A DNA stretch of 64,000 nt from Alphaproteobacteria bacterium (GTDB lineage Bacteria; Pseudomonadota; Alphaproteobacteria; GCA-2731375). The position numbers and the translations under genes are program-made. Every line of letters begins with the position of its first letter. The first letter of the stretch is position 1. Positions 13,628-54,244 of this stretch are shown here, piece by piece. The notes under the pieces are model-generated. The model was not told the DNA's origin. It searched no databases and saw only the letters and a program-made list of their open reading frames with translations. The stretch is taken from assembly GCA_030752605.1 (NCBI GenBank), contig JASMDX010000075.1, positions 17,086 to 81,085 on the forward strand, read 5' to 3'.

Positions 13628-13672
13628 GGCGTACTCCACTGTGCTGCCAGAAAAGAGGGATAGACTAGCATC

Positions 13673-17848: not shown

Positions 17849-17858
17849 CGCTCCGCCT

Positions 17859-19819: not shown

Positions 19820-19821
19820 GT

Positions 19822-20674: not shown

Positions 20675-20706
20675 GCCCTATTTGAAGCGTGCCATCCGAT
20701 AGGGCG
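20675..20706 (-). terminator. putative intrinsic terminator (stem CGCCCTAT/ATAGGGCG followed by UAUUAUAU) at the 3' end of the seven-gene operon
   Basis: 8-9 bp inverted repeat overlapping the oxidoreductase stop codon. A U-rich tract follows on the minus strand. The loop is long (17 nt), so confidence is moderate. Confidence 0.35.
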
Positions 20707-21931
20707 TCAGATCCACATCGGTAGGTTCACCGGCGACCAGCGCGGCGGTAATGCGGCCAGTGTTTGGCGCCATGCCGAAACCGTAGTGGCTGTGGCCAAA
20801 GGCGGCAAACAGGTCACGCTGGCCCGGCACCGTGCCGATGCAGGGCAGGCTATCTGGGAACGATGGGCGGCTGCCCATCCATTCTACCGGGTCGTCGGTG
20901 TTGATGTCGGGGAACAGCCGTTTCGCCAGGCCCTTGAAAATTTCAGCCCGACGATAGTTAGGCGCGGCATCAAGGCCGGCGAATTCGGCGGTGCCGGCAC
21001 AGCGCACCCCGGCCAGCATGGAAGAGGCTACGAATTTGCTCTCCGTATCCATGATGGAATTATTAACCGTGATGCCCGGCTGTTGCAGGATCAGATGATA
21101 GCCGCGTTCGGCCTCCAGCGGCAGATTTAGGCCCGATTGCTCTAGCAGCGGCGCAAGCAGGCGTGCCGACCAGGCGCCGGCGGCGATGACCACTTTGTCG
21201 CTGGTAATTTCGCCATCATCCGTCTGCAGCCGCCAGCCACCGCTTTCTTGTGGCGCGATCCGGTTAACGCCGGTCTGCCTGAACACCGCTCCCATATCCT
21301 GGGCCTTGGCGACCAGGGCCTTGCCAACGCCACCGGGTGAAAGGGCACGGGCCTGCGACTTGATCAATACCGCCGCTTTGTAGCGGGGCGACAGCGCGGG
21401 TTCAAGCTCATGGAGTGCGCCATCGTCAACGACCTCCAACGGCACATCGCGGTCCAGGCGCAGTTGCCAGCCCAACTGCTTCAGGTCAATCTCGGCTGGA
21501 TCACGGTAGATATGAACGTAGAAACTATCGCTGATCAGATGCTCCGAACCGGTACCCTGCAAAAGCTGGCGGTAAAGTTCGATATTGGGCCGGTTCAAGG
21601 CTTTCATGGCGTCGGCGATTTGGGGTAACTCGGCGACATTGCCGGCGCGCAGGAATTTTATGGCCCAGGGCAGGAACGAGGGTAGATAAGGCCAACGCAG
21701 TGCGATAGGACCTTCGGGATCCAACAGCCAGCGCGGTACGCTGCGCCACAGCCCCGGCATGGACTGCGGCACGCAGGTCCAGGGCGACACCACCCCGGCG
21801 TTGCCGTGGCTGGCCCCCTCCGCCGGCGGATCACGGTCGACGACCTCGACCGCCAGGCCTTTTTCGCGCAGATATACGGCGGTACAGATGCCGACAATGC
21901 CGGCGCCTACGATCGTAACCTGCTTAGCCAT
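20678..21931 (-). CDS. FAD-dependent oxidoreductase (DadA/D-amino-acid dehydrogenase-like)
   Basis: MAKQVTIVGAGIVGICTAVYLREKGLAVEVVDRD Rossmann GxGxxG. 417 aa, DAO-family length. Confidence 0.75.
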   Translation of the reverse strand: MAKQVTIVGAGIVGICTAVYLREKGLAVEVVDRDPPAEGASHGNAGVVSPWTCVPQSMPGLWRSVPRWLLDPEGPIALRWPYLPSFLPWAIKFLRAGNVAELPQIADAMKALNRPNIELYRQLLQGTGSEHLISDSFYVHIYRDPAEIDLKQLGWQLRLDRDVPLEVVDDGALHELEPALSPRYKAAVLIKSQARALSPGGVGKALVAKAQDMGAVFRQTGVNRIAPQESGGWRLQTDDGEITSDKVVIAAGAWSARLLAPLLEQSGLNLPLEAERGYHLILQQPGITVNNSIMDTESKFVASSMLAGVRCAGTAEFAGLDAAPNYRRAEIFKGLAKRLFPDINTDDPVEWMGSRPSFPDSLPCIGTVPGQRDLFAAFGHSHYGFGMAPNTGRITAALVAGEPTDVDLTPYRMARFK

Positions 21932-21951
21932 CGGCGACCATCCCTATTCTC

Positions 21952-23526
21952 TTATATCGCGACTTCAATCAGATACGGTCCTTCGCTATGCAGGCCGCTA
22001 TCAAAGGCCGTGGCCAGTTCCTCCGCCGTGGTTACCCGCGATGCCTCCACGCCCATGCCCTTGGCCATTTGCACCCAATCCAGGTTGGGCCGGTCGATGG
22101 ACAGCATATCCACCGCACGGGGGCCGGGGTTGAGCACGCCCACATTTGTCAATTCGCCACGCAGGATATTGTAGGTGCCGTTGGCGAAGAGCAACACGGT
22201 GACATCGAGATTTTCCCGCGCCATGGTCCACAGGGATTGCACCGTGTACATACAACTCCCATCGCCTTCCAGGGCGATGACCTTGCGGTCCGGGCAGGCG
22301 ATGGCGGCGCCGACGGCGACAGGCAGGCCGTAGCCGATGGAGCCGCCCCGGTTGTTGATCCAGTCATGCGGTGGCGCGCCGGCGGTTGTGGGGAAGAATT
22401 CCCGCCCCGTGGTGACGCTTTCATCGACCACGATGGCGCCCTCGGGCACCATGGCGCCCAGCACGGCGGCAATAGCGGCGGGCGTGATCTCGCCCGTGGG
22501 CAGGGCCGGACGATGCGGTGCCGCAACGCCGGCGGGCTCCATATCCAGGCAGTCCAGTTCAATGGCCAAGGCTTCCAGGGCGGCTTCCATATCCTCATCC
22601 GTACCGGCCAACAACGTGGATTTGGCATCCGGGTCCACCAACAGAGAGGGCTTGTCGGGATATGCGAAAAAAGCAACCGGCTCCCGCGCGCCGACCATCA
22701 CCAGATCACCGGCTTTTTTCATGACTTCAAGCGCCAGTTCCACCACATAGGGCACGCGGTTGACCTGTACCCGGCCCGCACCCCTTTCCAGGCGGGTATT
22801 GGCGCCTTCGGTCAGGATGCCGCAACCGGTCTTGGCGGCGATCCGGCCCGCCAGGTTCAGGCTGCGCTCGCGCAGGGCTGCGCCGCCCATCAATAAAGTG
22901 GCATTATCGGAGGTGCGCAGCAGATCGGCGGCGGCCTTGACCGCATCGTCGGATACTTTGGGTGGCGCGCTGGGCGCCGTGGTTACGGCGACTTCGTCCG
23001 CCGGCCCCCAGGCGGTATCGGCGGGCAGGATCAGGGTGGCGATCTGTCCCGGTGTCTGGGTCGCCGCCTCGATCGCCAAGGCGCCGTCGCCGGCGATGGT
23101 CTTGGAGGTCGGCGATGTCTTGACCCAATGGGACATGGACGCTGCCGTGCCCTCGATGTCGGCGGTCAGGGGCGCATCGTACTTAATGTGATAGGTGGCA
23201 TGTTCGCCGACGATATTGACGACGGCGGAGTCCGCCTTCTTGGCGTTATGCAGGTTGGCCAAACCATTGGCCAGGCCGGGCGCCAAATGCAGCAGGGTCG
23301 ATGCCGGCTTGCCCAGCATGCGGTAATAGCCGTCGGCGGCGCCGGTCACCACGCCCTCGAACAGGCCCAGGACGCAACGCATGCCCGGTACCTTGTCCAG
23401 GGCGGCGACGAAATGCATCTCGGATGTACCCGGATTGGTGAAGCAGACCGTGACGCCGCCGTCGATCAGGGTGCGGACCAGGCTTTCGGCGCCATTCATT
23501 TCATCGGAATTTATCTCGTTACTCAT
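21952..23526 (-). CDS. thiamine-pyrophosphate enzyme, acetolactate-synthase-like (POX/ALS family)
   Basis: 524 aa. Pyr domain N-terminus. TPP motif …ALEGDGSCMYTVQSLWTMARENLDVTVLLFANGTYN (GDG-X24-N). Confidence 0.75.
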   Translation of the reverse strand: MSNEINSDEMNGAESLVRTLIDGGVTVCFTNPGTSEMHFVAALDKVPGMRCVLGLFEGVVTGAADGYYRMLGKPASTLLHLAPGLANGLANLHNAKKADSAVVNIVGEHATYHIKYDAPLTADIEGTAASMSHWVKTSPTSKTIAGDGALAIEAATQTPGQIATLILPADTAWGPADEVAVTTAPSAPPKVSDDAVKAAADLLRTSDNATLLMGGAALRERSLNLAGRIAAKTGCGILTEGANTRLERGAGRVQVNRVPYVVELALEVMKKAGDLVMVGAREPVAFFAYPDKPSLLVDPDAKSTLLAGTDEDMEAALEALAIELDCLDMEPAGVAAPHRPALPTGEITPAAIAAVLGAMVPEGAIVVDESVTTGREFFPTTAGAPPHDWINNRGGSIGYGLPVAVGAAIACPDRKVIALEGDGSCMYTVQSLWTMARENLDVTVLLFANGTYNILRGELTNVGVLNPGPRAVDMLSIDRPNLDWVQMAKGMGVEASRVTTAEELATAFDSGLHSEGPYLIEVAI

Positions 23527-23558
23527 TGGTAGATGTCTCCTAGATGCATATTCAGTTC

Positions 23559-25292
23559 TCAGCTGGCGCGCAGCCTGACCGTGGCGGCTTCGTCCACTGA
23601 CTTACCATCCCCGCTTAGCTTAACGCCATAAATCTCTTCGCCGGCCTGTAGGCTGACGACGCCGTCGCGGATATCGCGTAGCACCCGCCATGGCTCCCGC
23701 TGTTTCGGATCGCCCCAGCCACCGCCGCCTGGTGATGAGGCGCGCAGGGTCAGGGGGCCGAAATGGCGGACGGCGTACTTCGGTGGCGTTTCTCTACCGC
23801 CATGGGCAAACGATACTTCCATGTCGCCGGGCTGGCCCGCGGCCCCGCCCGCGGCCCCGAAGCAGGACGTGTTGTACAGTCCCTCGCCGCGAAAGGCGTA
23901 TTCGGCATCGACATTGATCTCAACCTCGAAATCGGCGCCGGTGCCGCCGCGATAGGCGCCGGAGCCGGCGGCATCGGTGCGGAATTCCTGCCGTTTGAAC
24001 AGCACGGGATAGAGTTGCTCGTATGTTTCCACATTGGGCAACACCAGGCCGCCCAGGGCGATCAGATGGCCGATCTGGTTGAAACCGTCGCGGCCTTCGA
24101 CGCCGCCGCCGCCAGGCGCGGAATTCCATTGATACATCACGAATGGGCTCTCTCCGCCTGTCCTGCCTGATGTGGTGCCATGTATGGCCTTGCCCCAACC
24201 GGCGCAGCTGCGTTCGGGCACCGCCTGGTTCAGGGTTTTCCAGATCACATGTACGATCTCGTGCGCGACGAAGACCGTGTTCATGGTCATGGCGGCGGGC
24301 GGTCTGGCATTGATGATGGTGCCTTCGGGCGCGATGATGGTCACCGTGCGGAAGGTGCCTTCGTTGCGTGGCAGATCCGGGTCGAAGTACGAGGCCAAGG
24401 CCATGTAGACAGCGGACCAGGTGTTGGCGACGGAGGAATTCTTGAAGCCTTTGACCTGTGGCGCGGTGCCGGTGAAATCAACCTCCAAGGCCTCACCCTT
24501 GACGCTCAGGCGCACCCGAATGGCATCATCAACAGGCTCAAAGCAGTCGTTGTCGATGGCTTCTTCGGCGTGGTAGTTGCCGTCGGGCATGGCGGCGACA
24601 CAGCGGCGGAAGCTGCGGTCGGCATGTTCCAGGATGCCTTCGAAATAGTCCCGGTATTGCGTCATGCCAAGCTCTTCCACTAGGGCGGCGATGCGGTCGG
24701 CGCCGATCTTGGTGGAGCCGATCATGGCCCGTAGATCGCCATCCAGGGCCTCCGCCGTGCGCGTGTTGATCATCACCAGGCGCCAGATGTCCTGGCGCGT
24801 CTCGCCCTTGGCGATCAGTTTCATCACCGGCAGGCGGATGCCTTCGTGAAAAATCTCACGGGCTTCGGAATTGTAGGTCCCCGCCGCGCCGCCGCCAATA
24901 TCGGCTTGGTGGGCCCGGTTGCAGGCAAAGGCAACCAACTCGCCGCCAACAAATACCGGCCGGGCGATAACCCAGTCGGGCAGATGGTTGCCGCCCGCCG
25001 TGTAGGGATCGTTCAACAAAAAGACATCGCCATCATCGATATCACCGGCGAAATCCCGCAACAGGGCGCGCACGGCGAAACCGCCACCTCCCGTATGGAT
25101 GGGAATGCCGTCGGCCTGGCTGACCAGGGTGCCGTCGGGATCGGCGATGAAGCAGGAGAAATCGTGGCTTTGCGAGAAAATCGGGCTGCGCGCGGTCCGC
25201 GTCATGACCCAGCCCATCTGCCGCGATATATGATCCAAACGGTTCTGCACCAGGGCCAGGACGATCGGATCGAGACTGTCTTGACTGTTCAT
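23559..25292 (-). CDS. hyuB: hydantoinase B/oxoprolinase family protein
   Basis: 577 aa. …LDPIVLALVQNRLDHISRQMG…FSCFIADPDGTLVSQA… typical HyuB. 1-bp gap to hyuA. Confidence 0.85.
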   Translation of the reverse strand: MNSQDSLDPIVLALVQNRLDHISRQMGWVMTRTARSPIFSQSHDFSCFIADPDGTLVSQADGIPIHTGGGGFAVRALLRDFAGDIDDGDVFLLNDPYTAGGNHLPDWVIARPVFVGGELVAFACNRAHQADIGGGAAGTYNSEAREIFHEGIRLPVMKLIAKGETRQDIWRLVMINTRTAEALDGDLRAMIGSTKIGADRIAALVEELGMTQYRDYFEGILEHADRSFRRCVAAMPDGNYHAEEAIDNDCFEPVDDAIRVRLSVKGEALEVDFTGTAPQVKGFKNSSVANTWSAVYMALASYFDPDLPRNEGTFRTVTIIAPEGTIINARPPAAMTMNTVFVAHEIVHVIWKTLNQAVPERSCAGWGKAIHGTTSGRTGGESPFVMYQWNSAPGGGGVEGRDGFNQIGHLIALGGLVLPNVETYEQLYPVLFKRQEFRTDAAGSGAYRGGTGADFEVEINVDAEYAFRGEGLYNTSCFGAAGGAAGQPGDMEVSFAHGGRETPPKYAVRHFGPLTLRASSPGGGGWGDPKQREPWRVLRDIRDGVVSLQAGEEIYGVKLSGDGKSVDEAATVRLRAS

Positions 25293-25293
25293 A

Positions 25294-27369
25294 TCAATTC
25301 TCCGCCCCGTCGATTTCGATCAGGAAATTATCCGCTGCGTCCACCGACAAGCGGTCTTTCGGTCCGACAAACACCGTCGTGGTCAGCTCCTCCACCAGCA
25401 GCGGGCCGTCCCGGCAAAAGCCTGGCCGCAGATCGGCGCCGGTATAGACAGGCGTCTCCTGCCAGCCATGCCTGCCGTCCGTAAAGACTTGGCGCAGCGC
25501 GGTGGGTTCGGGCCGTTTATCCGATGGCTCAGCTGATATCGGATCCGTGACATCGATCAAGCCACGTGCGGTGACACGCAGGGCGGTGATCTCGATGGTG
25601 CCGCCCGGCTGGGTGTGGCCGTACTGCCGTTGATGATCCGCATCGAAGGAAACTCGAACGGCGCCTGGGTCGAAGCTGTCATCGGACAAGGCGACGCGGA
25701 TCGACCACAACTGGCCGCGATAGCGTAAGTCCAATTCCCGCTGCACTATCGCCTTGTCGCCGCTGAATCCTTCGGCGGCCAGCGCGGCCTGCGCCCGATC
25801 AGCCAGGGGCTCGAAAGCCTGTTGCAAGGTGGTGCCGTCGACGCTGTCCAGATTGTCGAAATGCACGGCCAGATAATCCTGGCGAATGTCCGTGTGCAAC
25901 ATGCCCAGGGCGCAAAAGGCGCCCGCCTGGCGCGGCACATAAGCCTGGCCGCAGCCCAACGAGCGGGCCACGGAGGCGCCATGCATGGGCCCGGCGCCGC
26001 CAGCGGCTACCAGAGTGAAGCGGCGCGGATCGTGGCCCCGCTGGATCGAGATATGCTCCACCGCATGCAGCAGGTTCTGTTCCAACAGGCGGATGATGCC
26101 TGCTGCCGCTTCTTCGACCCGAATTCCCAAAGGGGCCGCGATCTTGCTCTCGATAGCCTGCCACGCCAGCTTGTCGTCCAAGGTCACGCTGCCGCCCGCA
26201 TAGGGACCGGGGCGCAGGCGGCCCAGAACCATATAGGCGTCGGTGACGGTTGGCTGATCGCCGCCCTGGCCATAACAGGCCGGGCCGGGCAGGGCACCCG
26301 CGCCCAGTGGGCCCACATGCAGCAAACCGGCCTCGTCCACATGGGCGATGGTGCCGCCGCCCGCACCCACGGTATGGATTTCCACCGAGGGCGTGGCCAG
26401 GTGATAGCCGTCGATGTTCAGCTCGTCCGTCACGCCGACCTGGCCTTCGCCCATCAGGGTAACATCGCAACTGGTGCCGCCGATCTCCATGGCGATCAGA
26501 TTGTTCGTGCTCGCCGCCCGGCTATAGAGGCCCAGGGCGCCGACGCCGGCGGCGGGACCCGAGAGCACCAGATTGACCGGCCGCTCCGAGACCTGTTCGA
26601 CGGACACCGCGCCGCCGTTGCTTTGCAGCAATAAAATCGGCCGGGCCAAGCCGTTATCGCGTAAATGGCTGTCCAGATCCCTTAGGTAACCGACCACATT
26701 CGGTGCGATGTAGGCATTGACCACGGTGGTCGAGGTGCGTTCGTACTCCCCCATGATCGGGGCGATGCGGCTGGATAGCGAGACCCAGGGAAATGCTTCC
26801 AGGTGTTTCGCCACCGCATCCTCGTGCGCCGGATTGCCATAGCTGTTCAGCAAGGCAACGGCGATGGCGTCCACCTCTTCCTCGGCAAAGACCGCCATCG
26901 CCGCATCAACGTCGCTCAATGCGATGGACGCCAGTTCGACACCGTTCTTGTCCAGGCGGCCAGCCACGGGTTGGCGGAGATAACGCGGCACCAAAACGTC
27001 GGGAAAAGGTGCGCGGTGATCCCACATGTTCTCCCGTATACCACGGCGTACTTCCAGGCTGTCGCGGAAGCCGGTGGTGGTCAGCAGGCCGACCTTGGCG
27101 CCTTTCTTTTCTAGAATGGTGTTCGTAGCGACGGTGGATCCATGAAAAAACAAAGCGCAATTGCCAAGTAAATCAGACAGTTCGATCGACAACTGGTCCG
27201 CCGCCCGCGCCAGCACCGACATGACACCCTGGCTGGGATCGGCGGGCACGGAGGGCGCCTTGAACACCCACAGGGAGCCGGTTTGATCGCGCAGCACCAT
27301 GTCCGTGAAGGTGCCGCCCACATCGACGCCGATGCGCCAAGGTGCTGCTGGTTGCGCGCCGCTCACCAC
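25294..27369 (-). CDS. hyuA: hydantoinase A/oxoprolinase family protein
   Basis: 691 aa. WRIGVDVGGTFTDMVL ATPase motif, …GGTSCDV… GTG start overlapping the upstream TGA (GTGA). Confidence 0.85.
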   Translation of the reverse strand: MVSGAQPAAPWRIGVDVGGTFTDMVLRDQTGSLWVFKAPSVPADPSQGVMSVLARAADQLSIELSDLLGNCALFFHGSTVATNTILEKKGAKVGLLTTTGFRDSLEVRRGIRENMWDHRAPFPDVLVPRYLRQPVAGRLDKNGVELASIALSDVDAAMAVFAEEEVDAIAVALLNSYGNPAHEDAVAKHLEAFPWVSLSSRIAPIMGEYERTSTTVVNAYIAPNVVGYLRDLDSHLRDNGLARPILLLQSNGGAVSVEQVSERPVNLVLSGPAAGVGALGLYSRAASTNNLIAMEIGGTSCDVTLMGEGQVGVTDELNIDGYHLATPSVEIHTVGAGGGTIAHVDEAGLLHVGPLGAGALPGPACYGQGGDQPTVTDAYMVLGRLRPGPYAGGSVTLDDKLAWQAIESKIAAPLGIRVEEAAAGIIRLLEQNLLHAVEHISIQRGHDPRRFTLVAAGGAGPMHGASVARSLGCGQAYVPRQAGAFCALGMLHTDIRQDYLAVHFDNLDSVDGTTLQQAFEPLADRAQAALAAEGFSGDKAIVQRELDLRYRGQLWSIRVALSDDSFDPGAVRVSFDADHQRQYGHTQPGGTIEITALRVTARGLIDVTDPISAEPSDKRPEPTALRQVFTDGRHGWQETPVYTGADLRPGFCRDGPLLVEELTTTVFVGPKDRLSVDAADNFLIEIDGAEN

Positions 27370-27767
27370 CGGGACGCCTTGTCTTGGATCGAAACGTGGG
27401 CCGCGACGACCTTCCAGCCCAGATCGGGAAACTTCACCCAGGTTTGCGATTGCCGGCCCACTTCGTCCTGACCGCGGACCTTGAATTCCAGGTTCACGGT
27501 GGCGAAACTGTCGCCCAGGGTGAGGATTTCCAGGCGACGGCGCACTTCCTTGATGCCGGGACCTGGCGCGCGCGAGGTTCGGTGTTTATGGATCTCGTCG
27601 AAACCATAGCCGTTTTCGTGCATGGCATAGCGAATTGTCTTGGTGCTGTCCCAAAAGGTGTTGTCCAGAACATTCACATCTTTGTCGATCAGGGCCTGTT
27701 CATATTCCTCGAACAGGGCAGTAATTTCCGCCACTACGTCCGGATCGTTTTCGACAAGTGTATTCAC
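27363..27767 (-). CDS. DUF3225 / NTF2-like protein (AtzH/HpxZ-like)
   Basis: ~134 aa from a GTG that overlaps the amidase TGA (GTGA). VNTLVENDPDVVAEITALFEEYEQALIDKDVNVLDNTFWDS… NTF2-like cone. The 183-aa ORF-track call is an over-extension into the amidase gene. Confidence 0.6.
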   Translation of the reverse strand: MNTLVENDPDVVAEITALFEEYEQALIDKDVNVLDNTFWDSTKTIRYAMHENGYGFDEIHKHRTSRAPGPGIKEVRRRLEILTLGDSFATVNLEFKVRGQDEVGRQSQTWVKFPDLGWKVVAAHVSIQDKASRW

Positions 27768-28942
27768 GCGGAATTCTCCATTGCTAGGGCTAGGGCAGTC
27801 AGTTGGGCGTCCGTGCCCCAGCGGCCAATGATCGACATGCCAACAGGCAGGCCATCGATAGTAGCGCCAGGGATCGATACTTGCGGTACCCCGGTCAGGC
27901 CGCCGTGAGTGCACAGACAGGCGATCTGCATGCGCAGAGGGTCGGTCTGGTTGATCGGCAGGCCCTTCATCGGTGCTGGAAATGGTGTCGTCGGAAGGCA
28001 GAGCACGGTGTTGGGCGGCAACAGATAATCCAGCCGGGTCCGAGCCTCCTGGCGCATCATGTTGGCCCAGTCGCGCTCGGCTTCGGGAATGGCGGCGGCG
28101 GTGGCTAGGCCGCGGGCGACGGAGTAAGCCATGGCCGGATTGGTTGTTTCCAGCCAGTCCTTGAAGGTCAGCCAGCCTTCATGGGATTGCAGGGTACGCT
28201 GCGCCCTGGCCCAGGTGCTCAGACCAGGCGGTGCCATGACCTCTTCTTCAATTGTTTCCACCAATTCGCCCAGGCGCTCGATAATGGGTAATAGGGCGGC
28301 ATGTAGCTTGCCGTCCGCGAAGCCGAAGGCATCCACCGCGACGATCAGGCGGTCCGGCAGTTCGGTTGGAATATCTTCCGCCAACATGACGGCGGATGCC
28401 CTGGCGAAGGTCTTGGCGTCGCGGGCGAACCAACCGGTCGTATCGGAACTGGGCGCTTGCGGCATCATACCGCCAAGCTCCAGCCGGCCATGGGTGGGGC
28501 GGATGCCGTATAGACCGCAGAAACTGGCTGGCACCCGAACCGAGCCGCCGGTATCCGTGCCCAGGGCGATGTCGCACATATCTGCGGCCACTGCCGCCGC
28601 CGAGCCGGCGGAGGAGCCACCCGGTACCCGGTCAGGCGCGGCACTGTTCACCGGCGTGCCATGAAAGACATTCTCGCCCAGGATGCCTAGGGAGACTTCA
28701 TCGGTAATCGCCTTGCCCACCAGATCGGCGCCGCCGTCCAGCAAAACCTGCACGGCCCAGGCGTGCCGCTTTGCCGGTTCATGGTTGCCCGGCCAGTCTG
28801 GATTGCCGCCGCCCGTGGGATGCCCAGCCACATCAAACAAATCCTTGGCCACGAAGGTCAGGCCCGATAGCGGCCCATTCGGTGCGCCTTCGATATGTAC
28901 CGACGAGCCTGGCACCAACGCGCCGACCGTGTCTTGCATCAT
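27764..28942 (-). CDS. amidase-signature family amidase (short form)
   Basis: …GGSSAGSAAAVAADMCDIALGTDTGGSVRVPASFCG… AS signature with the Ser-cisSer-Lys triad region. 392 aa. Start abuts the upstream stop with 0-bp gap. Confidence 0.8.
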   Translation of the reverse strand: MMQDTVGALVPGSSVHIEGAPNGPLSGLTFVAKDLFDVAGHPTGGGNPDWPGNHEPAKRHAWAVQVLLDGGADLVGKAITDEVSLGILGENVFHGTPVNSAAPDRVPGGSSAGSAAAVAADMCDIALGTDTGGSVRVPASFCGLYGIRPTHGRLELGGMMPQAPSSDTTGWFARDAKTFARASAVMLAEDIPTELPDRLIVAVDAFGFADGKLHAALLPIIERLGELVETIEEEVMAPPGLSTWARAQRTLQSHEGWLTFKDWLETTNPAMAYSVARGLATAAAIPEAERDWANMMRQEARTRLDYLLPPNTVLCLPTTPFPAPMKGLPINQTDPLRMQIACLCTHGGLTGVPQVSIPGATIDGLPVGMSIIGRWGTDAQLTALALAMENSA

Positions 28943-29956
28943 CTAGCCCTCCAACAATTCTTGCACCGCCGCGCGCACATGCGCCTCATCATCGGTGTTG
29001 TCGATAGGGTTGCCCGCGCGGTGGCCCCAGATGGATTCGATGGGCCGGAACTCAGCGTTCGGCATTTGCGTGCATTCGGCCTCGCTATCCTCGGGCGTGA
29101 AGTAGAGATCCGTGCGCGAGGGCATGATCATGGCGCGGGCCTCGATGGCGCCCAGGGCGGTGGCCAGATCGCCGTTATAAATCTCGTTGTCAGATATATC
29201 TGAATCGTACCAGACCGCCAGCATGGCAAGCAGATCATCGCCATTGCGGCGCAGGAAATTTGCCTCCCAGCCGCGCACCAGATAATCCTCCAACGAGGCG
29301 AAACCCAGCTCCAGGTGCTTTTCCTGACGATAGAAGGCTTGGCTCATGGCCCAACCGGCATACAAGCGCCCCATGGCGCGCAAGCCACGCACGGGCCGGG
29401 CGGTGAAGCCACTCTCCTGCCAGGCCGGATCGGCGGTCAAGGTGGCGCGCACACCTTCGAGGAAAACCTTGTTATGGGGCGTGGTACGTGCCGAGCCGCA
29501 GACGGCGCAAATGGCGTCTACTTGATCCGGGAAGATGGCGCCCCAATGCAGGGCTTGTTGGGCGCCCATTGACCAGCCATAGACGAGAGCCAGATGCTCG
29601 ATTCCAAAATTTTCTTTTAGCAAGCGGTTCTGGGCCTGCACGTTGTCCCAATGGCTGAAGCGGGGAAAGCGCCCCATGCCATAGGGTTCCGCGATGTTGG
29701 AGGGAGAGGAAGAGAGTCCGTTGCCGAACATGTTGGGGATGATGATGAAGTACTTTTCTGGATCCAGGATACCGCCCGGACGGATCAACCATTCGATATC
29801 GATATGCTGGGCGCCATACGAGGTGGGATAGAGCACCACGTTGGATTTATCCGCCGCCAGTTTGCCATAGGTTTGATAGGTCAATTGCGCATTGGTCAGG
29901 GTCATGCCCCGCTGTAGGCGCAGATTGTCCAACTCGAAAACCTTGTAATCGTCCAT
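28943..29956 (-). CDS. alpha/beta-hydrolase, homoserine O-acetyltransferase (MetX)-like
   Basis: 337 aa. …LALVYGWSMGAQQALHWG… nucleophile elbow in MetX-like context. First gene of the minus-strand operon. Confidence 0.65.
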   Translation of the reverse strand: MDDYKVFELDNLRLQRGMTLTNAQLTYQTYGKLAADKSNVVLYPTSYGAQHIDIEWLIRPGGILDPEKYFIIIPNMFGNGLSSSPSNIAEPYGMGRFPRFSHWDNVQAQNRLLKENFGIEHLALVYGWSMGAQQALHWGAIFPDQVDAICAVCGSARTTPHNKVFLEGVRATLTADPAWQESGFTARPVRGLRAMGRLYAGWAMSQAFYRQEKHLELGFASLEDYLVRGWEANFLRRNGDDLLAMLAVWYDSDISDNEIYNGDLATALGAIEARAMIMPSRTDLYFTPEDSEAECTQMPNAEFRPIESIWGHRAGNPIDNTDDEAHVRAAVQELLEG

Positions 29957-30050
29957 TTTTGTGCTCCCTCCACTGCTTATCCTATCGCCAGCGGGCGGAG
30001 TGGTCCAATATGATCGCCTGCAATTCGTATTTCAGAGGGCCCCGATTGCC

Positions 30051-31964
30051 ATGACCAAGCCAAAACCAGCATCGCCGACCACCCAGGCAGCGCAAAAGGC
30101 TGTGCTGGAAGCTCTGCCGTTTGAAGATCAATTCGATTTCGAGCAGGCTCAGCGCGGTTTTATTGCCGCCGTGCCCGATGGCCAGGTCACGAATGCGCGC
30201 GGCGCTGAACTTTGGGATTTGCAGGCGTACGATTTTCTGAACCAAGGCGAGGCGCCTGATACGGTCAATCCCAGCCTCTGGCGCATGGCACAATTGAACA
30301 TGAATAACGGCCTCTACAAGGTGTGTGAGCGGGTCTATCAGCTACGTGGCATCGATCTGGCCAATATGACGATCATTGAAGGCGACAGCGGCCTGATCAT
30401 CGTCGATCCCATGACCACGGCCGAGGTGGCAGGCGCTGGGTTGGATCTGTATCATGCCCATCGCCCGGAAAAACCGGTTGTCTGCGTGATCTACTCTCAC
30501 AGTCATGTGGATCACTATGGCGGCGCCATGGGTGTGGCCAGTGCCGAGGATGCCGCATCTGGCAAGGTCAGCGTGATCGCGCCGGATCAGTTTGTCGAGG
30601 AATTAAGCGGCGAAAATGTCATCGCCGGCAATGCCATGATGCGCCGGGCACAGTTCCAGTTCGGCGGTTTGTTGCGCAAGGGAGCGTGCGGCCAGGTTGA
30701 TGCCGGCCTGGGCAAGGTCACGGCGCGGGGTCGGGTGACCTTGATCTCGCCGACATTAGTGATAACCGAGCCAACGGAAACTCATGCCGTTGATGGCGTG
30801 GAGATAGTCTTTCAACTGGCCCCGGATTCAGAGGCGCCGGCGGAAATGCATATGTTCTTGCCGCAATTCGGTGTCTTGAATATGGCGGAGAACACCACGC
30901 GCCTGCTACACAACTTTATTCCCTTTCGAGGCTCGGTCGCGCGCGACCCGCGCATCTGGTCGCGGCATATCTCCGATGCGATCACGATGTTTGGTGACCG
31001 GACCGAAGTTCTGATCGGCCAGCATCACTGGCCCACATGGGGCCGGGACGAGGTTAGGGCCTATTTGGAAAAGCAGCGGGATCTGTACAAATATATTCAC
31101 GACCAGACAGTCCGTTTAATGAACCATGGCCTCAACCGTGAGGAAATCTCCGAGGAGCTGGACCTGCCTCCCGGTCTGGATCAGGAATGGTCCGTGCGCG
31201 GTTACTACGGCAGCGTCAGCCATAACGCCAAGGCTGTCTATCAGCGATATCTCAGCTGGTATGATGCCAACCCGGCCAATCTGAACCAGTTGCCCCGGCG
31301 CGAAGCCGGAAGAAAGATGGTCGAATATATGGGCGGCGCCGAGGCGCTGCTTTTTCGTGCTCAGGCGGATTTCGGGGTTGGGGAGTACCGTTGGGTGGCG
31401 CAAGTGTTGAGCCATCTGGTCTTTGCCGAGCCGGAAAATATGGCAGGGCGGCAACTATTGGCAGATACCTTTGAACAACTCGGTTATCAGGCGGAAAGTG
31501 CGACCTGGCGTAACGCCTATCTGTATGGCGCGCAGGAACTGCGCCACGGCTTGGCCAAACTGCCTCCGCGCCGGATGATCAGCCCGGACATGCTGACCGC
31601 GCTGAGCGGTGGGGCGCTGTTTGATTTCATGGCCGTGCGTCTGAATGGCGCCAAGGCCGCCGGCCTGCGCTGGCGGATCAACTGGCATTTGAGTGACATC
31701 GACGAACGCCTGATGATGAACCTGCAGAATTGCACCATGACGTACATGCCTGGCGAGGTGGCGGACGACGCGGCTGCGTCCGTGCGGGTCAGCCGCGAGG
31801 TGCTGGTGGCGGTAAACGTGCGTAAGACCAATGTGACAGAGGCCTTGGCCGCCGGCGAAATGGAAATCAAAGGTGATCCGGCGCTGGTCGTGCGGCTTTT
31901 CGAAATATTGGATGATTTTGATATGATGTTCGATGTCGTCGCACCCAGTCTGAAGGGAGAGTGA
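30051..31964 (+). CDS. alkyl/aryl-sulfatase, SdsA1-type (MBL fold + dimerisation + SCP2-like C-terminus)
   Basis: …VIYSHSHVDHYGGAMGV… HxHxDH metallo-beta-lactamase motif. ~640 aa, three-domain architecture. A longer start at 29961 is possible. Confidence 0.75.
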   Translation: MTKPKPASPTTQAAQKAVLEALPFEDQFDFEQAQRGFIAAVPDGQVTNARGAELWDLQAYDFLNQGEAPDTVNPSLWRMAQLNMNNGLYKVCERVYQLRGIDLANMTIIEGDSGLIIVDPMTTAEVAGAGLDLYHAHRPEKPVVCVIYSHSHVDHYGGAMGVASAEDAASGKVSVIAPDQFVEELSGENVIAGNAMMRRAQFQFGGLLRKGACGQVDAGLGKVTARGRVTLISPTLVITEPTETHAVDGVEIVFQLAPDSEAPAEMHMFLPQFGVLNMAENTTRLLHNFIPFRGSVARDPRIWSRHISDAITMFGDRTEVLIGQHHWPTWGRDEVRAYLEKQRDLYKYIHDQTVRLMNHGLNREEISEELDLPPGLDQEWSVRGYYGSVSHNAKAVYQRYLSWYDANPANLNQLPRREAGRKMVEYMGGAEALLFRAQADFGVGEYRWVAQVLSHLVFAEPENMAGRQLLADTFEQLGYQAESATWRNAYLYGAQELRHGLAKLPPRRMISPDMLTALSGGALFDFMAVRLNGAKAAGLRWRINWHLSDIDERLMMNLQNCTMTYMPGEVADDAAASVRVSREVLVAVNVRKTNVTEALAAGEMEIKGDPALVVRLFEILDDFDMMFDVVAPSLKGE

Positions 31965-31968
31965 AACT

Positions 31969-32943
31969 TTGACGGAAACAACGTACAGCATCGGTGTTAT
32001 CGGCCTCGGTATCATGGGGCGGCGGATGATCGCGAATGTGATCAAACATTTCCGCCTTGCTATCAGCGGCGCCTGGGATCCGGATTCCCGGGCCTGCGCG
32101 GACGCAGCGGCGGAAACGCCTGACCTGGCGATCATGGCGGATGCGGACGCGGTTATCGCGCGGGCGGATCTGATATACGTTGCCACGCCGCCTTTATGGC
32201 ACCGGGAATATGCGGACCGGGCCATGGTGGCCGAAAAGCCGCTCTATTGTGAAAAACCCCTGGGCATCGATGTGGAGAGCAGCCGCGATCTGGTGGCGAC
32301 CTTGGACAACAGCTATACGCCCAACGTAGTGAATTTCATCCAGGCATCATCTCGCGCCGTGACCTTGACCAAGGAGCGCGTCGACAACGGCGCCCTGGGT
32401 GAAATCATCGGCGTCGATATCATCGTACATTTTTCCCGCTGGCCTCGGGATTGGCAGGCAGACGCCGATTGGCTACGTTTTCGTGATCAGGGCGGCTATA
32501 CACGCGAGGTGTTGTCGCATTTTATCTTTGTCACCCAGCGTCTGTTGGGGCCGGCAGCCTTGATCACCTCCTGTCCGGTCTATCAGGATGATCCTGAATT
32601 GTGCGAGACGCATATTTCCGCCGTGCTCGATTGTGGTGGCGTGCCGATTTCGGTGTTGGGGACCAGCGGCGGGGCGGGACCCGACAGGGTGGAAATGACG
32701 GTCTGGGGCAGCGAGCGGAGTCACCGTTTGCATGATTGGTTCTTCCTTCAATCCAGCAACGGCGGTGACTGGATGCAGGAATTCCCAGAGGTCGAGGATC
32801 CGCGCGTTGAAAGTTTCGGCTTGCAATTGGACAATGTGGCGGCTTGGATGGACGGCGAACCCAATGTCCTAGCCAGTGCCGCCGATGCCCTGGGGGTGCA
32901 AGAACTGGTCGAGGCGATGTTGGGTGCTGAAATAGGCGAGTAG
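31969..32943 (+). CDS. Gfo/Idh/MocA family oxidoreductase
   Basis: TTG start with GAAGGGAGAG RBS. …YSIGVIGLGIMGRRM… NAD(P)-binding Rossmann. Confidence 0.65.
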   Translation: MTETTYSIGVIGLGIMGRRMIANVIKHFRLAISGAWDPDSRACADAAAETPDLAIMADADAVIARADLIYVATPPLWHREYADRAMVAEKPLYCEKPLGIDVESSRDLVATLDNSYTPNVVNFIQASSRAVTLTKERVDNGALGEIIGVDIIVHFSRWPRDWQADADWLRFRDQGGYTREVLSHFIFVTQRLLGPAALITSCPVYQDDPELCETHISAVLDCGGVPISVLGTSGGAGPDRVEMTVWGSERSHRLHDWFFLQSSNGGDWMQEFPEVEDPRVESFGLQLDNVAAWMDGEPNVLASAADALGVQELVEAMLGAEIGE

Positions 32944-32948
32944 ACGGA

Positions 32949-34013
32949 ATGGTGAGGGAAGACCATAGGCCCATTGAGGGGGCCTGCGCCTGGTTAGGTA
33001 CGGAGATGGTGGATAATTCGCGTTGGCGGTTAGTGCTGTCGAATGACGATGTCGCGGAACTAAAGGCCGCCTGCGCCTCGGTTCAACAGAGCGGTATTCC
33101 ATGGCCGCAGATGAGCAAGGCGGACTTTCCACTCGTGCATCTGCCTGCCAAGCTGGCGGATATGGCCGAGGAGTTGGAACATGGCAGCGGCCTGGCCAAT
33201 TTGTCCGGGTTGCCCGTTGAGGCCTTCGGCGATGGTTTGCGCCATGTTTGGTATGGCATCGGCTTGCATATGGGGCAGCCGGTGGAACAAGATGGCAATG
33301 GCCTGTTGATGCGCGATATCCAGGACGAAAGCCAGGATACCGACACCATATTTGGGCATAAATTAACGGCGCGGAATGGCAGTACCTTTACTTCGTCCAA
33401 GGCGCGCACACTGTCCAACAATCTGTTGCGCTTTCATACCGACCGTGCGGATGTGGTGGCGCTGTTATGTTTGCGTCAGGCACCGATTGGCGGGGTCAGT
33501 CGGATCGCTTCTTCGGCCACGGTCCACAATGTGATGTTAGGGCGGCACCCGGATTTGGCGGCGCTGTTATATGGTCCCTATCACCGCTCCCGCCTGGGCG
33601 AGGAACGCGGTGGTGAGGCCATGAGCTATGCCTTGCCTGTGTTCGGCCAACGGGACGGCCGCTTTACCTCGCATTATTCCCGCACCTATGTCGAAGCGGC
33701 CCAGGAAATGCCCGGTGTTCCAATTATGGAGGACCGCCATTGGCAAGCCCTGGATATGTTGAATGAGCTGGCGGATGAGTTATGCATGGAGATGACCATG
33801 CAGGCCGGTGACATGCAGTTCATCAACAATCATGTGATATATCACGCCCGCACGGCCTTTCAAGACCACCCCGGCAGCAGCGTCGACCAGCGCCGTTGTC
33901 TGCACCGTTTGTGGCTGTCCATGCCCAACAGCCGGCCCTTGCCGGAGGATCATGCGGTGCTATGGCAAAATGTCGAGGCCGGCGCCTTGCGCGGCGGCAT
34001 TATTCAGGGCTAA
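32949..34013 (+). CDS. Fe(II)/2-oxoglutarate-dependent dioxygenase, TauD/TfdA family (AtsK-like?)
   Basis: …LRFHTDRADVVALLCL… (HxD) and …NNHVIYHARTAF… (distal His). 354 aa. Confidence 0.7.
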   Translation: MVREDHRPIEGACAWLGTEMVDNSRWRLVLSNDDVAELKAACASVQQSGIPWPQMSKADFPLVHLPAKLADMAEELEHGSGLANLSGLPVEAFGDGLRHVWYGIGLHMGQPVEQDGNGLLMRDIQDESQDTDTIFGHKLTARNGSTFTSSKARTLSNNLLRFHTDRADVVALLCLRQAPIGGVSRIASSATVHNVMLGRHPDLAALLYGPYHRSRLGEERGGEAMSYALPVFGQRDGRFTSHYSRTYVEAAQEMPGVPIMEDRHWQALDMLNELADELCMEMTMQAGDMQFINNHVIYHARTAFQDHPGSSVDQRRCLHRLWLSMPNSRPLPEDHAVLWQNVEAGALRGGIIQG

Positions 34014-34021
34014 GACCTGAA

Positions 34022-34459
34022 CTATTCCGTCAGGGGCACGCCCGGTACCCAAAGATAGCCGTCCTGGTCGATAATATAGGCCTCGCGCAGGCCATGGGGC
34101 TTGTCCAGGGCGCCGGCCAAAACCTCGAAACCCAATTCCCGCGCCCGGGCCTCGGCGATATCGGGGTCACGGCCATATAGGCGCAATTCCGCGCCGATGC
34201 CGCGCGCCAGATCCTCATCCAGGCTACCCTTCAGGGGATGGCTGCTGTAGGTGTGGTCGGCGTGCAGCATCCATTCGGCGCCATAGCCGCGCAGGGCTGC
34301 AAAATCCGGGTCTGAATGCACCACTTCGGCGCCCAGAACCTCAATCTGGAACATTAGGGCGCCGGGAACATCACGCACCACCAGATTGACCCCTAAACCA
34401 CGCAGGCCACGGCCATATTCAGGAGCGGGCATCCAAGGAGTGCTGGTGGACAGCTTCAT
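34022..34459 (-). CDS. VOC (glyoxalase/bleomycin-resistance/dioxygenase) family protein
   Basis: 145 aa, paired βαβββ modules. Confidence 0.5.
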   Translation of the reverse strand: MKLSTSTPWMPAPEYGRGLRGLGVNLVVRDVPGALMFQIEVLGAEVVHSDPDFAALRGYGAEWMLHADHTYSSHPLKGSLDEDLARGIGAELRLYGRDPDIAEARARELGFEVLAGALDKPHGLREAYIIDQDGYLWVPGVPLTE

Positions 34460-34571
34460 AATTCATTCCTTTTGGGCCGTAATTTATAACGCCTTTAGCT
34501 TAAATTAAAAATGGCCCTTATAAAAGATCAATATATGATAATAATGTAGGGCCAATAATTTTAGAGAGGAT

Positions 34572-36086
34572 ATGACCATGCCTGGCGGCGCCAAATTACT
34601 GGCTCTTGACCTGGATAAAGACAATACGGGACCGCTTTATCGGCAGTTATACGACCTTTTACGCCTGATGATCCTGGATGGCCGTTTGCCATCGGGTAGC
34701 CGCTTGCCGGCCAATCGTGTCTTGGCCCAAGATCTGTCGCTGTCTCGCAATACGGTGGCCACGGCCCTGCAACAGCTTTTGGCCGAAGGATATGTGGAAA
34801 CCCGGCGAGGTGACGGTACCTATGTGGCCTCGGAATTACCCGATGACGTATTGGGCGGACCGGACTGCCACCAGCCTGACCGTCATGCCTACCGAACCGA
34901 GCAAGCGGATGATGTTGCCCGCCGCTATGGTCTTTCCCGACGCGGCCAAACCCTGGCGGCGATCAGCCGGGCCTCGGTGGGCAGTACCACGGCCTTTGCC
35001 CCCGGACCGGATATAGATGCTTTTCCTTTTGCCGTTTGGGCTCGCCTGTTGGCGCGCTTTTGGCGCCGCCCGGGTTCGGAATTGGCAATCAGCCGCGATG
35101 CCGGCGGTTATCCACCCTTGAAGGCGGCGATCGCGGCCTACTTGGGCGCCATGCGCGGCGTGCGCTGCGATCCCGGCCAGATCATCGTGGTCAGCGGGGC
35201 CCAGCAGGCGATCGGCCTGGCGGCCCAGGTTTTGCTGGATCATGATGATCAGGCCATGGTGGAGGAGCCGGGTTATGGCGGTATACGGGGCGCTCTGACC
35301 GCCGCTGGCCTGCGCATGGCGCTTGTGCCCGTCGATGAGGAAGGCATGGATATCGCCGCCGGCGAGGCCCGCGCGCCCATGGCGCGGCTGGCCTGTGTCG
35401 CGCCGTCGCACCAGCATCCCCTGGGCGTGGTGATGAGCCTGCGCCGGCGTTTGGCTCTGATCGAATGGGCCCGGCGGCGCCAGGGTTGGATTTTGGAAGA
35501 CGACTACGATAGTGAATACCGTTATGCTGGCCGGCCCCTGGCTGCCTTGCAGGGTTTGGACACCACGGGGCGGGTGATCTATGTGGGCAGCTTTTCCAAG
35601 GTGCTGTTTCCCGCCTTGCGACTGGGCTATCTGGTGGTGCCCCCTGATCTGGTGGATCCTTTCATTCGGGCCCGGCGGGTGCTGGACGATCATACCGCCA
35701 TGCTGGCTCAGCCGGTGCTGGCGCGGTTCATCGAGGATGGTCATTTCGCCGCCCATGTGCGCCGTATGCGCCGGCTGTACGCAGACCGTCAAGAAGCCTT
35801 GCTGAGCGCGGCAAAGGCTCATCTGAGCGGTTTGCTTAAGATCGATGCCGATGAGGCCGGCATGCATCTGATCGCCAGTCCGGCGTCCGGGTCAATGGGC
35901 GCGATGGATGACCGATCGATCGCCCAGGCGGCGGCCAAGGCCGGGGTCATGGTCATGGCCTTGAGCACGGCCTATGCCGGCAAGCCTGTGCGCCGGGGCT
36001 TGATACTGGGTTATGCCGCGCACGATGAAGACGCAATCGCGGCTGCCGCCCGGCGTCTTGGTGAAATCATGGCGGCCGCGGCATGA
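34572..36086 (+). CDS. MocR/GabR-type transcriptional regulator (GntR HTH + aminotransferase-like domain)
   Basis: N-terminal …PLYRQLYDLLRLMILDGRLPSGSRLPANRVLAQDLSLSRNTVATALQQLLAEGYVETRRGDGTYVA wHTH. ~400-aa fold-type-I PLP domain. GAGAGGA RBS. Confidence 0.8.
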   Translation: MTMPGGAKLLALDLDKDNTGPLYRQLYDLLRLMILDGRLPSGSRLPANRVLAQDLSLSRNTVATALQQLLAEGYVETRRGDGTYVASELPDDVLGGPDCHQPDRHAYRTEQADDVARRYGLSRRGQTLAAISRASVGSTTAFAPGPDIDAFPFAVWARLLARFWRRPGSELAISRDAGGYPPLKAAIAAYLGAMRGVRCDPGQIIVVSGAQQAIGLAAQVLLDHDDQAMVEEPGYGGIRGALTAAGLRMALVPVDEEGMDIAAGEARAPMARLACVAPSHQHPLGVVMSLRRRLALIEWARRRQGWILEDDYDSEYRYAGRPLAALQGLDTTGRVIYVGSFSKVLFPALRLGYLVVPPDLVDPFIRARRVLDDHTAMLAQPVLARFIEDGHFAAHVRRMRRLYADRQEALLSAAKAHLSGLLKIDADEAGMHLIASPASGSMGAMDDRSIAQAAAKAGVMVMALSTAYAGKPVRRGLILGYAAHDEDAIAAAARRLGEIMAAAA

Positions 36087-46403: not shown

Positions 46404-46514
46404 TCGTGGAAATGATGAAGGAAGCGGAAGCTTTGTGCGGCGATTTATTGTAAAAGCATATTCACGCAACGACGTTACCTACCTCTCCGCGAACCCCTGT
46501 TAGGGAGCCGAACA

Positions 46515-48356: not shown

Positions 48357-48382
48357 TCTGGTTTGCAAGTGGTGTGGGAAAA

Positions 48383-50442: not shown

Positions 50443-50475
50443 AGGTACATTCTTTCGTCTGATTTCAAAGTGGAT

Positions 50476-53030: not shown

Positions 53031-53040
53031 AATACTGTCC

Positions 53041-54180: not shown

Positions 54181-54244
54181 GGCACGTGCCTCCCTAAGCC
54201 TACTGTAAACCGAAGTGGCTAAAGGGTGAAGGCTCTGATCTCGG

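Follow-up and report, generated by a model that had tools for sequence, protein, structure and literature searches.

Does an alkylsulfatase gene packed tightly against a gene of the TauD dioxygenase family mark a module in which sulfate esters are cleaved by two mechanistically distinct enzymes? The question is raised by a locus in a 64,000-nucleotide stretch of contig JASMDX010000075.1 from an alphaproteobacterial genome (this whole stretch is called the window below). Three co-directional plus-strand open reading frames (ORFs) were confirmed there, encoding an alkylsulfatase, a Gfo/Idh/MocA oxidoreductase and a PF02668 dioxygenase. An earlier note, made from the sequence alone, had proposed that a hydrolytic sulfatase of the SdsA1 type and an oxidative sulfatase of the AtsK type flank the oxidoreductase, and that the whole region, including a divergent seven-gene operon, handles a sulfated or sulfonated substrate. 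We consider it reasonably probable that the locus is instead a short operon whose three enzymes had separate evolutionary histories, and no dual sulfate-ester-cleaving module. The sulfatase had been correctly spotted; the sulfur theme built around it was over-read.

The features at the centre of the analysis are as follows.

29957..30050, no strand: divergent intergenic region, 94 bp (alignment of nine orthologous intergenic regions)
30051..31964, plus strand: type III alkylsulfatase with metallo-beta-lactamase (MBL) fold and binuclear zinc site, 637 amino acids (aa) (Pfam, PDB matches, mapped residues)
31969..32943, plus strand: Gfo/Idh/MocA-family NAD(P)-dependent oxidoreductase, 324 aa, TTG start (Pfam, NCBIfam, PDB)
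32949..34013, plus strand: Fe(II)/2-oxoglutarate hydroxylase, TtnM/FrbJ subfamily of the clavaminate-synthase-like (PF02668) superfamily, 354 aa (sequence, profile, fold)

The three genes are probably co-transcribed as one unit. Only 4 nucleotides (nt) separate the sulfatase and Gfo genes and 5 nt the Gfo and dioxygenase genes, and the ribosome-binding sequence of the Gfo gene (GGGAGAG) sits within the 3' end of the sulfatase gene. All three are under purifying selection (dN/dS 0.05-0.14), and this holds in the genomes that lack the Rieske genes described below, at dS of about 0.8-1.1. The sulfatase ORF had been listed as 29961-31964 with a GTG start. We place the true start at ATG 30051 for three reasons. 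In all relatives the preceding 90 nt are intergenic, with insertions and deletions that are not multiples of three; the alignments to all homologues and solved structures begin near residue 4 of the product of this ATG; and a Shine-Dalgarno-like GAGGG precedes it.

A type III alkylsulfatase with an intact active site

Judged by its sequence, the first gene product is a genuine type III alkylsulfatase, on the grounds of both family membership and an intact active site. The three-domain architecture of this class is present, with all domains above the Pfam cutoffs: the MBL catalytic domain (Lactamase_B PF00753, 1.3e-14, 55 bits), the dimerisation domain (Alkyl_sulf_dimr PF14863, 1.7e-59, 200.6 bits) and the SCP2-like C-terminal domain (Alkyl_sulf_C PF14864, 3.9e-33, 114.8 bits). 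The same architecture is found in SdsA1 of P. aeruginosa, SdsAP of Pseudomonas sp. S9, Pisa1 of Pseudomonas sp. DSM6611 and YjcS of E. coli, to all of which the protein aligns over its full length (Pisa1 3e-196, SdsAP 9e-193, SdsA1 1e-186, YjcS 4.5e-176). Its best PDB match, aligned end to end, is 7tl5 (8e-199), an uncharacterised structural-genomics target from Klebsiella. With E-values near 1e-190 to solved members of the family and invariant zinc- and sulfate-binding residues, the assignment to the SdsA1 type stands.

The residues H287, N288, R293 and R298 are the counterparts of H317, N318, R323 and R328 of Pisa1, which serve in sulfate binding and as general acid. Proline 291 occupies the position of Thr321 in Pisa1. 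The zinc ligands H150, H152, D154, H155, E261, E280 and H325 were mapped by alignment from those of SdsAP (H192, H194, D196, H197, E303, E322 and H367; PMC5426288). The HxHxDH motif and the Glu, Glu and His ligands are identical in SdsA1, SdsAP, Pisa1 and YjcS, and across 14 homologues of 60-100% identity none of the seven ligands or of the four residues H287, N288, R293 and R298 has changed.

Two positions separate the primary-alkyl from the sec-alkyl enzymes, Y246/G263 in SdsAP versus S233/F250 in Pisa1 (PMC5426288). The window enzyme has F204/G221, with Phe for Tyr at the first position, and so appears closer to the primary-alkyl type, resembling SdsA1 and SdsAP and unlike Pisa1. A second difference concerns location. 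SdsAP carries a 41-aa signal peptide (PMC5426288), and the chains of Pisa1 and SdsA1 begin at residues 21-34 relative to SdsAP, whereas the window sulfatase has none, so that a cytoplasmic location is predicted for it. Coming from a marine alphaproteobacterial lineage of metagenome-assembled genomes (MAGs), it is a further member of an established family, with its predicted cytoplasmic location as a minor twist.

A dioxygenase related to TtnM and FrbJ

The third gene product was the proposed second sulfatase. It does carry the TauD domain (PF02668, 1.5e-22, 81 bits), so that part of the earlier assignment held; the likeness to AtsK and TauD did not. Canonical TauD-clade proteins score 219-239 bits on the same model. 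In a single-sequence search of PDB, the only strong matches were 7n7v (1.6e-43), identified as TtnM by its Foldseek description, and FrbJ (5eqn, 6e-41); VioC, AsnO and CAS followed at E of about 0.1, confined to the distal-His region. A profile built from 16 family members again ranked 7n7v (8e-66) and FrbJ (1e-53) first, followed by CAS, AsnO, VioC, OrfP, CmnC, BBOX and KDO. TauD, AtsK and Rv3406 were found neither at E<=1 with the single sequence nor at E<=10 with the profile, and the NCBIfam taurine dioxygenase model did not match.

Structure comparison gave the same placement. An AlphaFold2 model of the protein, with a predicted local distance difference test score (pLDDT) of 84.8, was searched against PDB with Foldseek, and the best matches were TtnM (E 1.9e-26; target-normalised template-modelling (TM) score 0.81) and FrbJ (E 2.6e-23; target-normalised TM 0.88). 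These alignments covered residues 6-350, with target-normalised TM of 0.80-0.88, query-normalised TM of 0.67-0.73 and a root mean square deviation of about 3 A. Next in rank came KDO1, AsnO, CAS, OrfP, VioC, TmpA, NapI, CmnC and BBOX; AtsK, TauD and Rv3406 were absent from the top 50 PDB matches. Thus by sequence, profile and fold the TauD-like protein clusters with enzymes that act on substrates other than sulfur compounds, the first of the two outcomes that the earlier note had named as speaking against its own proposal.

Direct comparison with E. coli TauD yielded a BLASTP E-value of 0.087 over 44 residues and an hhalign probability of 0.7%, whereas a control, a canonical TauD-clade protein from one of the related loci (L032), is 39% identical to E. 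coli TauD (3e-74). AtsK is 54% identical to Rv3406, and the two are recognisably related to TauD (PMC3675115), so an enzyme of the AtsK type would have been detected. We therefore rejected an AtsK/TauD-like identity. The metal triad (H163-x-D165...H299) and arginines R301, R316 and R320 are invariant in the family alignment; such an HxD...H triad with a 2-oxoglutarate-binding Arg is generic for the superfamily and not diagnostic of AtsK or TauD. Similarity to AtsK (P. putida S-313), Rv3406 (M. tuberculosis) and TauD (E. coli) is limited to the jelly-roll fold, the HxD...H triad and the PF02668 umbrella, with no pairwise or profile similarity detectable beyond the distal-His motif. The window protein is also about 70 residues longer than TauD (354 versus 283 aa) and, unlike the AtsK/TauD clade, shows no sulfur-starvation gene context among the window ORFs scanned.

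On its sequence and modelled fold, then, the dioxygenase is best described as an intact TtnM/FrbJ-like Fe(II)/2-oxoglutarate oxygenase and not a sulfate-ester-cleaving enzyme. TtnM is a hydroxylase of tautomycetin biosynthesis and FrbJ the FR-900098 phosphonate hydroxylase. Both have in common with the window protein the HxD...H triad and an HxR motif after the distal His, although structure-based identity is just ~25-30%. Both are also tailoring enzymes of Streptomyces secondary metabolism, whereas the nearest relatives of the window protein lie in operons of catabolic type with Rieske oxygenase and Amidohydro_2 genes.

The family as a whole is a large, unexceptional branch of a known superfamily, with 2060 proteins at E<=1e-5, mostly encoded by standalone genes in marine and soil Alphaproteobacteria. 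To survey its surroundings, we took the best 80 loci (~77 distinct contigs) from a scan of one genome per species, clustered the ORFs within 5 kb on either side and tallied homologues of window genes by tblastn. Outside the close clade of the window, no neighbour occurred in more than about 8 of these loci; the recurring ones were short-chain dehydrogenase (SDR), CoA-transferase, canonical TauD and ABC-transporter ATPase genes, and they yielded no function for the family. Nor was there a conserved sulfur-gene neighbour across the 80 loci.

Two kinds of locus in this family stand somewhat apart. At seven distant loci (L029-L032, L045, L078 and L081), a TtnM/FrbJ-like dioxygenase gene lies 1-2 kb from a canonical TauD-clade gene, whose product is 39% identical to E. 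coli TauD. One of them (L032:9971-14021) also holds a PEP_mutase-family gene and a luciferase-like monooxygenase gene, and another (L078:8284-11059) a PhyH-family oxygenase gene; these are multi-oxygenase clusters. On plasmid p2 of Caballeronia insecticola (L178; NC_021295.1, 112595-116553), the gene of a 50%-identical homologue lies beside a LysR regulator and immediately precedes the binding-protein, permease and ATPase genes of an amino-acid-type ABC transporter, a context that hints at an amino-acid-like substrate for the family. As clues to what the window enzyme hydroxylates, this transporter and the Rieske alpha/beta and Amidohydro_2 neighbours of close relatives are only suggestive.

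A Gfo/Idh/MocA oxidoreductase remote from characterised members

The middle gene was also correctly assigned to its family. Its product matches GFO_IDH_MocA (PF01408, 2.2e-15, 57.8 bits) as well as PF02894 and PF22725, and appears intact, since the family invariants, the GxGxxG region, E95-K96-P97 and H184, are all present. The N-terminal Rossmann GxGxxG, the EKP motif and the His184 of the C-terminal domain are shared with YjhC, myo- and scyllo-inositol dehydrogenases and 1,5-anhydro-D-fructose reductase. The protein is nevertheless remote from every characterised member: its best PDB matches, YjhC and inositol dehydrogenases, have E-values of only 1e-10 to 1e-8 (best 1.6e-10).

This oxidoreductase belongs to a widespread family of ~320-aa proteins whose genes have no conserved neighbours, as ORF clustering across 80 metagenome loci found none. 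The pairing with a sulfatase is seen only in the clade of the window. No sulfatase lies within 6 kb of the homologues of 41-64% identity (0 of 76 metagenome loci), and two loci with 72%-identical homologues also lack one (L093 and L095, the former with just 458 nt upstream).

The divergent operon and the shared intergenic region

On the minus strand, the sulfatase gene faces a seven-gene operon. Its genes and the two that follow the dioxygenase gene are listed here.

20678..29956, minus strand: divergent seven-gene operon (family assignments, gene calls on the identical contig, orthologous operons in L173 and L174)
28943-29956, minus strand: MetX-like alpha/beta hydrolase (domain match)
27764-28942, minus strand: amidase (domain match)
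27363-27767, minus strand: AtzH/HpxZ-like protein (domain match)
25294-27369, minus strand: HyuA, hydantoinase/lactamase-type (domain match)
23559-25292, minus strand: HyuB, hydantoinase/lactamase-type (domain match)
21952-23526, minus strand: thiamine pyrophosphate (TPP) enzyme, PRK07586 (NCBIfam)
20678-21931, minus strand: DadA-like FAD oxidoreductase (domain match)
34022..34459, minus strand: glyoxalase/VOC-like gene (synteny)
34572..36086, plus strand: MocR/PdxR-type GntR-aminotransferase regulator (NCBIfam, synteny)

The domain matches of the plus-strand genes and of the operon are all far beyond chance. HyuA and HyuB most resemble caprolactamase subunits, and the amidase and AtzH/HpxZ-like protein point to amide or ureide chemistry. 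The TPP enzyme, which had been likened to acetolactate synthase and to the sulfur enzyme Xsc, passes the NCBIfam model PRK07586 (768.7 bits versus a cutoff of 363). We rejected an Xsc identity, the Xsc model (PRK07525) scoring 78.5 bits against a cutoff of 620. The operon thus appears to be of a nitrogen-heterocycle or lactam catabolic type, with no predicted sulfur-specific enzyme. A scan with Pfam and NCBIfam of some 40 window ORFs, which left aside about 54.3-64 kb and flank ORFs shorter than 170 aa, found no TauX, no sulfonate or sulfate transporter and no ssu, tau, cys or ats genes. The proposal that the whole region handles a sulfated or sulfonated substrate therefore lost its ground, given this lack of sulfur-metabolism genes among the ORFs scanned and a co-location of dioxygenase and sulfatase that is confined to a narrow clade.

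The divergent region next to this operon, estimated in the earlier note at about 94 bp, is exactly 94 bp long (29957-30050), between the minus-strand ATG at 29956 and the sulfatase ATG. Two motifs in it are conserved in the intergenic regions of nine relatives, motif A (TATCCTATCG, 29978-29987) and motif B (GGTCCAATATGATC, 30002-30015). The latter includes a -10-like TATGAT (30009-30014) for the plus-strand genes, and a promoter scan returned TCGCCA-18-TATGAT at 29985-30014. For the block as a whole, the scan was not much above shuffled expectation, with 7 promoter-like sites versus 3.7+/-2.0, and 1 terminator-like site versus 4.2.

Motif B is kept upstream of the sulfatase in two loci from which the minus-strand operon is absent (L010 and L019), so the sulfatase has its own promoter element. 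The exact word of motif A is restricted to loci that have the minus-strand operon in divergent position, L094 and L174 carrying one-base variants. A shared region of 94 bp does not by itself prove co-regulation.

Gene histories from comparative synteny

An overview of about 170 related loci shows a history of its own for each of the three genes. Among the 80 best dioxygenase loci, a sulfatase and a Gfo gene lie within 10 kb of the dioxygenase gene only where the dioxygenase is at least 73% identical to that of the window. All 55 loci with dioxygenases of 69% identity or less lack sulfatase, Gfo and Rieske genes, the sole exception being a 31% sulfatase homologue in L028. The window arrangement recurs in L012-L015, L017 and L094 (the last from the metagenome scan). 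In other close relatives the order differs:

L018 and L092: sulfatase, Gfo, Rieske alpha, Rieske beta and dioxygenase on one strand
L009: an opposite-strand dienelactone-hydrolase (DLH) gene between Gfo and dioxygenase
L010 and L019: the sulfatase-Gfo pair 3-6 kb from the dioxygenase, with unrelated genes and Rieske alpha/beta between
L001, L020, L022 and L025-L027: Rieske alpha, Rieske beta, dioxygenase and Amidohydro_2, with no sulfatase within 10 kb

Two MAGs with this last arrangement, that of Rieske alpha/beta and Amidohydro_2 genes, are informative. Each encodes a sulfatase orthologue (75% and 69% identity; L173 and L174, belonging to the assemblies that also gave L024 and L025), and its contig is not that of the dioxygenase. 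Here the sulfatase is divergent from an orthologous MetX-like/Hyu operon, with the same intergenic motifs, no Gfo gene and a convergent thiolase gene downstream; the operon in L174 lacks the amidase and AtzH-like genes. Of 14 orthologous loci, 12 keep the divergent pairing of sulfatase and MetX-like operon, with sulfatase identities as low as 69%. No generality was found for the sulfatase-Gfo pair, these 69-75% orthologues being without Gfo. Remnants of Rieske, Amidohydro_2 or DLH genes were not found in the window, and in the plasmid collection sulfatase and MetX-like homologues share no accession among the matches listed.

The most parsimonious account is that the MetX-like operon and the sulfatase form one old unit, and that the Rieske alpha/beta-dioxygenase(-Amidohydro_2) genes, beside the glyoxalase-like, MocR and TerB genes, form a second. 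On the same account a sub-clade gained Gfo beside the sulfatase and brought the two units together, and the lineage of the window afterwards lost the Rieske genes. So read, the position of the dioxygenase beside the sulfatase is a recent rearrangement, and what looked like a double sulfatase module is an ordinary lineage-specific juxtaposition.

In one locus (L175:6001-13932), the gene of a sulfatase homologue (64% identity) precedes a co-directional short-chain dehydrogenase gene. The sulfatase gene lies 2.4 kb from genes for paralogous HyuA and HyuB (41% and 34% identity) and near TPP-enzyme genes, loosely paralleling the sulfatase, dehydrogenase and Hyu arrangement of the window.

Other neighbouring genes

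The glyoxalase/VOC-like gene is convergent with the dioxygenase gene across an 8-nt gap and is syntenic with it in all close relatives. Divergent from it is the MocR-type gene (NCBIfam PdxR, 427 bits versus a cutoff of 320; MocR, 506 bits versus 650), and these two form a syntenic block with TerB. In their intergenic region (34460-34571), AATGGCC and GGGCCAAT, ~35 nt apart, are conserved in nine relatives. We regard this pair as a candidate operator of the MocR/PdxR-like regulator. The sulfatase promoter holds a related word (GGTCCAATA), but an operator shared with the MocR region was not convincing: the pattern GGKCCAATA occurs 4 times in the window versus 1.25 expected, two of these occurrences falling at unrelated sites.

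At 37920-40435, past the MocR and TerB genes, lies another block that is syntenic in all close relatives, made up of genes for an Abhydrolase_11 protein (minus strand), a fatty-acid-hydroxylase-family (OlsE-like) protein and a CobW/zinc-chaperone-type GTPase. Beyond the seven-gene operon, at 16334-20580 on the minus strand, ubiD, ubiV, ubiU and ubiT genes stand in a row. UbiT, UbiU and UbiV score above NCBIfam equivalog cutoffs, and UbiD is a below-cutoff, family-level match (654 versus 788 bits). Together they make up the O2-independent ubiquinone biosynthesis set, in keeping with related MAGs having come from oxygen-minimum zones (Saanich Inlet; Black Sea, 150 m).

Acyl-CoA dehydrogenase genes are unusually dense, with four within 44844-54276 and one at 12482-14173, alongside genes for an AMP-dependent ligase, a class III aminotransferase, a nitroreductase and an iron-sulfur flavoprotein like dihydroorotate dehydrogenase (DHODH). 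They point to a large region for the catabolism of fatty acids or amines that has nothing to do with the sulfatase block. A second amidase-signature gene at 58769-60172 is 43% identical to the operon amidase over 157 residues.

A proposed role for the block and its alternatives

In the picture that we favour, the sulfatase would hydrolyse an imported or internally formed alkyl sulfate monoester to an alcohol and inorganic sulfate. The Gfo dehydrogenase, translationally coupled to it, would most likely oxidise the freed alcohol with NAD(P)+, a role suggested solely by an adjacency that survived several rearrangements within one clade. The TtnM/FrbJ-like hydroxylase may carry out C-H hydroxylation of a small polar metabolite in a reaction that is unrelated to that of the sulfatase or at best downstream of it. 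The conserved promoter with its TATGAT element, travelling with the sulfatase, would drive the three-gene transcript. Related loci come from marine, often low-oxygen samples. Since seawater is rich in sulfate (~28 mM), selection is unlikely to favour the scavenging of sulfur by AtsK/TauD-type enzymes, and the sulfatase would more plausibly unlock a sulfated carbon or nitrogen source. It may also feed the divergent lactamase/hydantoinase-type operon, its most persistent neighbour.

Several points weigh against this picture. Characterised type III sulfatases are exported, whereas the window enzyme is predicted to be cytoplasmic and no sulfate-ester transporter is encoded nearby. Gfo/Idh/MocA enzymes usually act on sugars and cyclitols, not on the fatty alcohols freed by known type III sulfatases. 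The trio persists, its genes 4-5 nt apart, across genomes at the divergence given above, so that co-expression and some functional coupling of the hydroxylase are possible. The direction of events, Rieske loss versus Rieske insertion, is inferred by parsimony only, and the functions of the three plus-strand proteins, like those of their close homologues, are predicted.

How, then, do other explanations fare? A dual module, with type III hydrolytic and AtsK-type (type II) oxidative sulfatases, an Xsc-like TPP enzyme and a TauY-like DadA protein devoted to a sulfated or sulfonated substrate, draws on the genuine sulfatase, the tight packing of the genes, and the PF02668 match with its generic triad. 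PF02668, however, spans the whole clavaminate-synthase-like superfamily, and the score of the window protein falls far below those of the canonical TauD clade. The profile failed to detect TauD, AtsK or Rv3406, E. coli TauD itself is barely seen, the nearest structures are hydroxylases of non-sulfur substrates, and sister genomes carry the dioxygenase and sulfatase genes without linkage. Together with the failed Xsc match and the absence of sulfur-starvation, sulfonate and sulfite genes among the window ORFs scanned (54.3-64 kb lying outside that scan), this leaves the dual module largely refuted by sequence and fold placement, and we hold it to be extremely unlikely. Of the two supposed sulfate-ester-cleaving types, only the sulfatase stands. 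It is also highly unlikely, in our judgement, that the sulfatase-like protein uses its MBL/SCP2 scaffold to hydrolyse another ester or a lactone, tied to the substrate of the neighbouring operon, and is no sulfatase in vivo. Such a role would suit its predicted cytoplasmic location, unlike that of the exported enzymes, the lack of an associated sulfate-ester transporter and the uncharacterised status of its closest solved relative, 7tl5. Counter to this, every known zinc- and sulfate-binding residue of SdsA1, SdsAP and Pisa1 is invariant and similarity to characterised sulfatases is high. To our knowledge, no non-sulfatase activity has been described for the MBL/dimerisation/SCP2 architecture.

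A broader alternative is that the sulfatase, Gfo, hydroxylase and seven-gene operon form one extended pathway, controlled from one bidirectional region, for the breakdown of a single marine metabolite that is sulfated and contains nitrogen. Arguing for it are the divergent pairing and its two motifs, retained in most orthologous loci, the arrangement in L175 and the purifying selection on the three plus-strand genes. All the supporting loci, however, come from one family-level clade of Rhodospirillaceae-like MAGs, in which neutral retention of synteny is expected, and the unrelated-looking flanks (glyoxalase-like, MocR, TerB, Abhydrolase_11, FA_hydroxylase and CobW) are kept equally well. L010 and L019 keep the sulfatase-Gfo pair without the operon, and plasmid MetX-like homologues lie among urea, cytosine and amidase genes with no sulfatase, the two sharing no accession among the matches listed. 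The Hyu genes of L175, with their low identity, are paralogues. We regard this extended pathway as unlikely, if still worth keeping in view. A related reading, to which we would give a rather small chance, takes the divergent pairing as the mark of an undescribed pathway, in which the cytoplasmic sulfatase and the ATP-dependent lactamase/hydantoinase-amidase-AtzH-TPP-DadA operon share the bidirectional control region (TATCCTATCG...GGTCCAATATGATC) for a sulfated nitrogen-containing metabolite in low-oxygen marine Rhodospirillaceae. If true, the desulfated product would be the substrate of Gfo and of the TtnM/FrbJ-like hydroxylase, both of them additions specific to this lineage.

Implications

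Under the preferred picture of three enzymes with separate histories, the locus holds two cautions for annotation. A Pfam "TauD" match spans the clavaminate-synthase-like superfamily and so does not imply sulfonate or sulfate-ester chemistry, and tight packing of genes in one genome does not imply an ancestral functional module. What is gained is a well-supported, apparently cytoplasmic lineage of type III alkylsulfatases in Alphaproteobacteria of marine oxygen-minimum zones, a family of some 2000 TtnM/FrbJ-like hydroxylases whose nearest relatives lie in Rieske-oxygenase operons, and a conserved divergent promoter between the sulfatase and the lactamase-type operon, with a possible shared inducer.

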